This document shows positions 2,007 to 2,129 of a stretch of 5,871 bases of DNA, piece by piece. The notes below the pieces were generated by a model that had not been told where the DNA came from, made no database searches, and saw only the letters and a list, made by a program, of their open reading frames with translations. This stretch comes from a virus: positions 1-5,871 of the IMG/VR virus record IMGVR_UViG_3300029515_000107. The stretch is one strand, 5' to 3'. The position numbers and the translations under genes were made by a program. How positions within the stretch are numbered: the stretch's first letter is position 1; each line of letters begins with the position of its first letter.

Positions 2007-2129
2007 CCTTGCAGGCAGACAAGGGCTGTCCGCAGTATTATACCGCAAAAAAGTCAATTTTTCTTTTCCCTAAAAAGTTTGAATTTTAATGAAATCTGTT
2101 TTGCGGACGGCTCCTGTGTGCCTGTGAGG
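2007..2129 (+). repeat. Long-range imperfect inverted repeat / predicted 28-position RNA stem enclosing 67 nt
   Basis: Arm 2007-2034 (CCTTGCAGGCAGACAAGGGCTGTCCGCA) pairs with 2102-2129 (TGCGGACGGCTCCTGTGTGCCTGTGAGG). By hand that is 22 Watson-Crick pairs, 4 G.U pairs (plus-strand reading) and 2 mismatches. The arms are GC-rich in an AT-rich intergenic region. Confidence 0.55.

Follow-up and report, generated by a model that had tools for sequence, protein, structure and literature searches.

The main finding of this work is a hairpin of 123 nt, located between two early genes of a temperate phage, that very probably represents an RNA helix of the plus strand kept by selection. The hairpin occupies positions 2007-2129 of a 5,871-nt stretch (the window, that is, the whole stretch of DNA analyzed), which is a fragment of the IMG/VR virus record IMGVR_UViG_3300029515_000107 (positions 1 to 5,871 of that record) and covers the immunity and early region of the phage. 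Two features of its variation among relatives, a bias of G.U pairs toward the plus-strand reading and the occurrence of compensatory changes, point together to a helix selected in the sense-strand RNA. The structured RNA motif is well supported and has no described RNA family: no Rfam 15 family matched the whole window or the element alone, the latter with permissive filters. All scores came from models of microRNA precursors and were far below threshold, the best being 21 bits against a threshold of 120 bits for the plant model MIR2599.

Fold of the Hairpin

Read directly off the sequence, positions 2007-2034 pair with 2129-2102 through 22 Watson-Crick pairs, four G.U pairs (2010/2126, 2011/2125, 2024/2112 and 2027/2109) and two mismatches (G2018/G2118 and A2022/C2114), the counts and the mismatch positions being exactly those of the initial annotation of this DNA. 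The same annotation held that the pairing exceeds what chance would give, and the RNAfold prediction for 1995-2150 agrees with it. The stem is the minimum free energy (MFE) structure of the plus strand, with -50.4 kcal/mol against a mean of -31.8 for shuffled sequences (z = -5.45); none of 200 shuffles folded as well, and the pair probabilities within the stem are 0.80-1.00. RNA of the minus strand would fold more weakly (-39.0 kcal/mol, z = -2.6). The helix is built of 11 bp, a G.G 1x1 internal loop, 3 bp, an A.C 1x1 internal loop and 12-13 bp, and its parts are the following:

2007-2129, plus strand: early-operon hairpin, 123 nt, between two early phage genes
2007..2017, plus strand: outer helix, 5' strand, 11 bp with 2119-2129; its alleles in relatives are CCUUGCAGGCA (2 G.U pairs) or xCUCACAGGCA (all Watson-Crick)
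2018, plus strand: G of the invariant G.G 1x1 internal loop, partner G2118
2019..2021, plus strand: middle helix, 5' strand ACA, 3 bp with UGU 2115-2117
2022, plus strand: A of the second 1x1 internal loop, partner C2114
2023..2035, plus strand: inner helix, 5' strand, 13 pairs with 2101-2113
2036..2100, plus strand: AU-rich apical region that caps the helix
2043..2050, plus strand: competing-helix segment CCGCAAAA, complementary to 2099-2106 (UUUUGCGG)
2063..2073, plus strand: pyrimidine tract CUUUUCCCUAA, in the predicted terminal loop
2101..2113, plus strand: inner helix, 3' strand; its alleles CGGCUC, CAGUUC, CAGCUC, CAGUCU and CGGUCU all pair with GGGCUG via G-C, G.U or U-A
2114..2118, plus strand: C2114 (loop), UGU 2115-2117 (middle helix) and G2118 (loop)
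2119..2129, plus strand: outer helix, 3' strand UGCCUGUGAGG; sequence conservation ends exactly at its end

It had also been proposed that the helix between CCGCAAAA and UUUUGCGG provides an alternative fold that excludes the long stem. This helix does exist, but the exclusive fold does not follow from it. When the competing helix was forced, the predicted energy rose by 6.8 kcal/mol (-43.6 vs -50.4), its pair probability is about 0, and it displaces only the top five pairs of the stem, the other ~21 being left intact. Therefore, according to the folding model, the competing helix amounts to branch migration confined to the stem tip, and there is no second, mutually exclusive fold. Among relatives, CCGCAAAA is kept as CCGUAAAA in the apical types B and C and is missing in type D.

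Conservation of Pairing in the Plus Strand

The two arms of the hairpin are strongly conserved. Their nucleotide diversity, computed on 25 distinct loci that were selected regardless of hairpin presence, is 0.043 and 0.054. In the apical region it is 0.18, the adjacent non-coding DNA on either side of the hairpin shows 0.20-0.24, and the flanking genes reach 0.28-0.34 at third codon positions; the conservation of the arms is thus 5-6 times that of synonymous sites. Pairing is conserved as well, since 98.9% of 962 pair cells, taken from 37 distinct sequences, hold a standard pair. Double compensatory changes were found at three pairs (2023/2113, 2025/2111 and 2033/2103), the two-sided changes being of the type G-C/G.U/A-U twice and C-G/U.G/U-A once, and at 11 pairs just one of the two bases changes, switching between G.U and Watson-Crick pairing. 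For instance, the bases opposite GGG (2023-2025) vary as CUC, UUC and UCU, and the left outer arm reads either CCUUG, with two wobbles, or CUCAC, with Watson-Crick pairs, against the same right arm. None of 500 shuffles reached any of the five pairing measures, and controls with slid arms were at most 54% paired. The search for covariation that had been suggested along with the initial annotation was therefore positive, and the substitutions in the arms keep the pairing.

The variation is also asymmetric between the strands. In the plus-strand reading, the cells that are not Watson-Crick comprise 104 G.U pairs and 7 mismatches, whereas in the minus-strand reading they comprise 2 G.U pairs and 109 mismatches. 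Counted by site, 11 polymorphic positions keep pairing solely in the plus-strand reading and two singletons favor the minus strand. The initial annotation leaned toward a plus-strand RNA, and this asymmetry, together with the compensatory changes, gives that view a much firmer basis. A pattern of mostly wobble intermediates with few full compensations is that expected for a structurally selected helix at shallow divergence; since it fits structural selection, the conservation of the arms alone would need no sequence-specific recognition. As judged from these comparisons, selection maintains the plus-strand pairing independently of the neighboring genes.

Occurrence Among Related Phages

The hairpin is present on ~160 contigs of related phages, prophages and metagenomes, in each case at the same operon junction. 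Searching with an exact 30-mer gave 8 contigs, and with the upstream protein alone 33 loci, all 33 with the hairpin. The left-arm 15-mer gave at least 92 true copies in IMG/VR, as well as chance matches that had no right arm, and a 20-mer gave 70 true copies in metagenome contigs, nearly all from the human gut. With a downstream protein of 86 amino acids, 40 loci were retrieved (31 of them searched with the covariance model), and the hairpin was present in all those with enough upstream DNA except one deletion variant. It was also found in 8 of 8 prophages on long metagenome contigs and in exactly one copy in each of five near-complete genomes of ~39 kb; in the near-complete genome G002 it is the only clean long stem, both strands considered. 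No copy of it was found in 185,579 GTDB species-representative genomes, either with the left arm or with an arm-gap-arm pattern, the host genome lying outside the collections searched. Likewise, the HTH_17 protein encoded upstream of the hairpin has no relatives among the species genomes, and blastn of 1780-2460 gave no match in GenBank phages. Taken together, these results describe a hairpin family restricted to its lineage, with a single copy per genome at a syntenic position.

An assembly collection contains the exact HTH_17 protein in 1,675 of its indexed blocks, which indicates that the phage is very common in the human gut. On long contigs, it is integrated beside genes of the class Clostridia, coding for a giant SLH-domain protein, MatE and a LytTR regulator. 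The best match of the flanking MatE protein is in a metagenome-assembled genome of an uncultured Clostridiales, with 64% identity (the nearest species genome). The host is an uncultured Clostridia-class bacterium of the human gut.

These searches bear on the suggestion, made in the initial annotation, that the hairpin is a mobile inverted repeat, similar to a miniature inverted-repeat transposable element (MITE), inserted by chance. Its build recalls such elements: a short AT-rich core is enclosed by terminal inverted repeats of 28 nt, the total length is 123 bp and the boundaries of homology are sharp. One phage, L255, also shows a near-precise loss of it. Nevertheless, each near-complete genome has one copy and the species genomes have none, the ~160 copies share the same operon junction, and the flanks of all variants lack a target-site duplication or any direct repeat; in L255, 8 nt of the left arm remain, as if the rest had been removed by a microhomology deletion. 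Elements of the Correia and ERIC type are MITEs whose hairpin RNAs are RNase III substrates, and their copies, dispersed and flanked by target duplications, number tens to hundreds. The hairpin is comparable to them in its ~120 bp, its inverted arms of ~26-28 nt, its transcription within an operon and its form of a would-be RNase III target, but it is strictly single-copy and syntenic and is absent from the species-representative genomes searched. A MITE origin is thus refuted within the data searched, and overall we regard it as extremely improbable.

Genes Around the Hairpin

The genes and signals that surround the hairpin in the window are the following:

3-458, minus strand: cI-like helix-turn-helix gene
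517-545, plus strand: consensus rightward promoter
583-792: cro-like gene
1789..1992, plus strand: HTH_17 (excisionase-family) gene of 67 amino acids, with its stop codon 14 nt before the stem
2137..2142, plus strand: Shine-Dalgarno (SD) sequence GAGAGG, outside the stem, in a purine-rich run that starts right after it
2150..2260, plus strand: gene of a 36-amino-acid peptide with a single transmembrane (TM) segment and a basic tail, overlapping the start of the next gene (ATGTTTAA, 2253-2260)

A stretch with leftward genes lies between the cro-like gene and the HTH_17 gene, and the peptide gene is coupled to further small genes, followed by those of an SMC-like ATPase and a Sak4-like protein. 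This layout, with the rightward promoter followed by the cro-like, HTH_17 and peptide genes, places the hairpin on the sense strand of an early rightward operon. The hairpin stands at a junction, with a variable, immunity-proximal accessory block upstream and the small genes and the replication/recombination module downstream, and it marks the border between a hyper-variable accessory region (Tad2-like anti-defense and leftward genes) and the replication genes.

The genes on both sides of the hairpin vary among relatives. The HTH_17 gene is replaced by at least three unrelated small genes (at least four kinds of upstream gene in all), and the gene that follows the hairpin codes either for the TM peptide or for a repeat protein of 146-218 amino acids, in which case the peptide gene lies ~640 nt further. 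The spacing is also variable: the stem starts 10-20 nt after the upstream stop codon, and the SD follows the stem at a distance of 8 to ~50 nt. The same HTH_17 gene and hairpin are followed by at least four different replication/recombination modules (L263-L270 and L346-L348), namely AAA_23, Sak4, helicase and PriCT; Gp157 and DUF927 primase; DUF2800, PDDEXK, Enc34 SSB, PolA and VapE; and Sak. The prophage lineage of the hairpin is an extreme case of module exchange. This variability of neighbors, spacings and modules argues against a leader dedicated to the peptide, and hence against a type I toxin, and also against an origin tied to its initiator.

Some details of these neighbors were noted in passing. 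The protein of 146-218 amino acids (MKKYELTDET...) contains GNAKVCGNAEVCG-type repeats whose number varies between phages (L131, L089, L021, L022 and L233). In L030-L032 and L321, an insertion of ~37 nt right after the hairpin forms a second small hairpin, AUGACUCCCuaaaacaGGGACUCAU. A Tad2-like gene (anti-Thoeris family) lies upstream of the HTH_17 gene in L264, L266, L346 and L348, and because of its presence in these relatives, the variable block between the cro-like gene and the hairpin looks like an anti-defense or accessory island.

The initial annotation also proposed a structural switch that controls the 36-amino-acid peptide, since type I toxin mRNAs typically have long, structured 5' UTRs. 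The hairpin would then be the leader of a membrane peptide similar to type I toxins and would govern translation or stability of its mRNA. In most members a small, basic-tailed TM peptide is indeed encoded within 20 nt downstream, and in all members inspected some version of the peptide gene is found within ~700 nt downstream. However, the SD (2137-2142) and the AUG (2150) lie outside the stem and are unpaired in both the MFE and the centroid structures, and the alternative helix on which a switch could rely has a probability of about 0. Furthermore, the peptide gene is translationally coupled, overlapping the start of the next gene inside a long operon, and neither an antisense promoter nor a terminator of an antitoxin RNA was found in 2000-2460. 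The gene of 146-218 amino acids separates the hairpin from the peptide gene in several relatives, and the distance from stem to SD ranges over the 8 to ~50 nt given above. A role as toxin leader is therefore very unlikely, and the proposal of a switch is not sustained.

Signals of transcription are lacking around the hairpin. The stem is followed by AAGUAAAGAGAGG, with no U-tract, as an intrinsic terminator would have, and the scan of the window detected no plus-strand terminator. No promoter-like site was found at 2035-2101 on either strand, and in 2000-2460 there is no minus-strand promoter or terminator, the nearest leftward promoter being at 2898-2870. On the early strand of a complete genome, the first terminator-like sites are weak and the first well-formed one lies ~10 kb downstream. 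Three candidates were rejected. A -10-like CATAAT/TATAAT at 1995-2000, which would start transcription at the base of the stem, is unconserved in other upstream contexts; a TATAAT of the minus strand (2043-2038) has no usable -35 and is GATAAT or GATAAC in other apical types; and a small open reading frame of the minus strand, behind the purine-rich complement of the loop, is out of frame and unconserved across apical types.

Possible Role in Processing and Stability of the Early mRNA

Among the explanations considered for its function, the best supported, which we put forward tentatively from the modeled fold and its position, is that the hairpin may act between cistrons in the processing and stability of the early polycistronic mRNA, either as an RNase III-type site, as a barrier or as both. 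Cleavage by RNase III, or the blocking of RNases, would set the relative stability of the upstream and downstream segments of the mRNA. The size of an RNase III substrate, about two helical turns or at least 20 bp, is reached by the 26 pairs and two 1x1 loops of the stem. Bacterial RNase III targets, those mapped in B. subtilis among them, classically have this form, a ~26-bp duplex interrupted by small internal loops, and the early mRNA of phage SP82 is a known RNase III substrate (PMC4838370).

Two modes of action can be envisaged. In the first, an enzyme of the RNase III type could cut the double-stranded stem and so split the message in two, and the purine-rich run with the SD, immediately 3' of the stem, could then shield the new downstream 5' end. 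In the 5' stabilizer of SP82, a purine-rich SD region stands directly 3' of the stem, and it is this precedent that makes 5'-end protection conceivable here. Alternatively, or additionally, the uncleaved hairpin, with its predicted -50 kcal/mol, might be a roadblock that stops exonucleolytic decay across the junction. By either cleavage or roadblock, the decay of the two halves of the message would be uncoupled. The transcript would leave a region that is also transcribed leftward, and that is possibly prone to sense-antisense duplexes, and then enter the replication genes.

The known phage sites of this kind support the comparison in part. Like those of SP82, of the T7 R1.1 type and of the lambda N leader and sib, the hairpin has more than 20 bp with small internal loops, lies between early cistrons and has no U-tract after the stem; in many members it stands directly after an excisionase-family gene, an arrangement that recalls the retroregulation by lambda sib. 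Unlike the SP82, T7 and lambda sites, it is a single site with a large and persistent apical region (47-70 nt), it has no sequence similarity to them, its cleavage is a candidate one, and its host is an uncultured gut Clostridium-class bacterium. Should the hairpin prove to be a signal for RNase III or for stability, it would rank among the first post-transcriptional control points defined for phages of gut Clostridia, and it would also offer a portable insulator part.

Observations Against This Role and Other Explanations

Several observations weigh against a role in processing and stability. There is a single hairpin per genome, unlike the multi-site processing of T7 or SP82 early RNA, and no analogous hairpin was found, with the covariance model or with RNALfold at the same place, in 66 more distant prophages of similar gene order, which were picked as sharing the AAA_23 (SMC-like) gene. 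All 37 distinct sequences have G.G in the first 1x1 loop (2018/2118). Its counterpart at 2022/2114 is A.C in 30, A.A in four, C.C in two and C.A in one, and in none of the 37 is it a standard pair; a single transition would close the A.C, yet it is never closed. To judge from this variation, the fixed 1x1 loops suggest specific recognition over a generic duplex. In addition, the apical region has at least 47 nt in all ~70 versions, though RNase III needs none, and its persistence, together with a CC-Y-UAA core, hints at a further or different function. Finally, two natural variants depart from the hairpin. In L255 (IMGVR_UViG_3300029768_000317, 2060-2100) it is lost almost precisely, with CTCACAGG joined to ATAAAGAGAGG, and in L341 (OGZT01005913.1) CTCACAGGCA and TGCCTGTGAG, the perfect outer repeats, enclose ~84 bp that are exactly reverse-complemented. 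Because one phage lacks the hairpin and another has the inverted form, these sequences indicate that the hairpin is not strictly essential. As for the distant prophages, the only covariance-model match among the 66 (L158, E = 0.005) lies inside an open reading frame, with a fold z of -1.5, and was rejected.

The fixed loops and the apical region raise the question of whether the hairpin is instead a specific protein-binding or regulatory RNA. The platform for a phage or host factor would then consist of the pyrimidine-rich apical loop and of the helix, whose two mismatches are fixed. Variants of this explanation are a nut/put-like modifier of RNA polymerase, a decoy for a host protein that recognizes double-stranded RNA, and a stable RNA of ~120 nt, released from the transcript, whose C/U-rich loop acts in trans on purine-rich (SD-like) targets. 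The invariance of the G.G loop speaks for it, as do the second 1x1 loop, unpaired in four base combinations, and the apical region that is never shorter than 47 nt. This region exists in at least four versions of length and sequence (47-70 nt), which differ by indels and substitutions, evolve at a near-neutral rate and have no conserved secondary structure across relatives; the CC-Y-UAA core of the pyrimidine tract is kept in most of them, type B having CCCAAU. The single copy in a fixed place of the early operon, downstream of a cro-like gene, also recalls lambdoid nutR and putR.

The hairpin shares with lambda nutR and HK022 putR that it is a unique, cis-acting RNA element of the rightward early operon, but it differs from them in having no boxA/boxB and no two-stem put RNA, in addition to lacking an Rfam match. 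Antitermination would have no target, since there is no well-formed early-strand terminator to read through for ~10 kb downstream in the complete genome. The pyrimidine tract is degenerate in some members, as in L250, and the only complement of the loop in the window, a 7-nt match (GGGAAAG) at 1175, is at chance level. Since the neighboring genes are mosaic, no candidate partner gene co-varies with the hairpin. On balance, such a platform is unlikely. A particular form of it, in which a stable RNA of ~120 nt, either released from the early operon or displayed by it, binds a specific host or phage factor (as a decoy for a host defense protein or nuclease that recognizes double-stranded RNA, or as a cofactor that reprograms RNA polymerase or ribosomes) and might occasionally be flipped as DNA, which would weaken the helix, is distinctly improbable. 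If a specific factor were bound, the hairpin would suggest an RNA-based layer of the early phage-host interaction.

The two natural variants raise another explanation, that the hairpin acts as DNA, either as a priming or origin signal in the single-stranded DNA of the top strand or as an invertible or recombinogenic inverted-repeat site. In L255, the upstream gene of 80 amino acids runs almost directly into the TM-peptide gene, and its loss of the hairpin looks like a microhomology deletion. The flanks of the inversion in L341 are identical to those of L089. The inverted form, for whose junction CCCTTGTCTGCCTGTGAGG is diagnostic, was found in 1 of 70 metagenome copies, and a junction-specific search of IMG/VR gave none against at least 92 normal copies, that is, ~1 in 160 overall. 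We read both the deletion and the inversion as probably the instability expected of a quasi-palindrome.

In favor of a DNA element, the exact inversion took place between perfect outer repeats of 10-11 bp, the deletion is near-precise, the AT-rich apical region is like an unwinding element, and the top-strand DNA is predicted to fold well (-27.7 kcal/mol, z = -5.3) relative to the bottom strand (-20.2 kcal/mol, z = -2.5). G.T pairs in a top-strand hairpin would, moreover, yield the same strand bias as that described above. Nevertheless, at least four unrelated replication/recombination modules follow the hairpin, whereas origins are initiator-specific, and GC skew in a complete genome tracks the direction of transcription only and is uninformative on an origin. 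The rarity of the inverted form is a further objection, and frequent flipping would erase the G.U bias of one strand. The hairpin contains no promoter, and there is no invertase nearby, only the phage integrase a few kb away. Rare deletion and inversion are expected of any quasi-palindrome, and, with the hairpin on the sense strand of a transcribed operon, RNA is the simpler reading. An action as DNA is therefore improbable.

The hairpin can also be compared with the cwpV and flagellar switches of Clostridioides difficile. As in these switches, inverted repeats surround a short segment in a transcribed leader, and one natural inversion was found. In a leader switch of this type, the orientation would change the RNA that is made. 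The present hairpin is unlike them in that its inverted form is as rare as ~1 in 160 and no dedicated recombinase lies nearby, and the one-strand G.U bias argues for a single functional orientation. Independently of its function, the hairpin is a clean natural example of a quasi-palindrome that, at a single site of 123 bp, has undergone deletion, inversion and compensatory evolution by way of wobble pairs.

Recombination has also occurred within the hairpin. The left-arm, apical and right-arm alleles reassort in all combinations, which implies crossovers inside the 123 bp. To the extent that allele combinations reveal it, the hairpin also serves as a recombination joint, a role that leaves the complementarity of its halves unexplained. 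It could then be asked whether it is only such a joint, kept for homologous exchange of modules and without RNA function. Homology breaks exactly at the ends of the helix, the upstream and downstream genes are shuffled around it, and its own alleles were recombined internally. There is also a precedent in the PeSL cassettes of T4-type phages, stem-loops that act as shuffling joints and that are multi-copy, with a strong early promoter and a terminator stem-loop (PMC2839356). The hairpin is similar to PeSL in that small early genes are shuffled around a conserved stem-loop, with breakpoints at or inside it, and unlike PeSL, it has one copy and neither promoter nor U-tract, so that it does not belong to that class. 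A linker requires identity between genomes and not complementarity between its own halves, and the 98.9% pairing, the three compensatory pairs and the plus-strand G.U bias would be left without explanation. Recombination in the arms is more plausibly a side effect of their conservation, and it seems hardly likely that the hairpin is a joint and nothing else.

Other Structures in the Window

Another strong hairpin, of ~20 bp (GAUUCGGCAUCU...AGAUGCCGAAUC), is located at 1405-1466, inside the open reading frame 1319-1504 and just past the end of the convergent gene 1491-1709. It has no U-tract after either strand and is part of the lowest local fold of the window (-58 kcal/mol, 1380-1542). A match of this hairpin to mir-737 was below threshold and was discarded as spurious. 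In addition, a long non-coding stretch (1085-1318) lies downstream of a leftward promoter (1278-1250).

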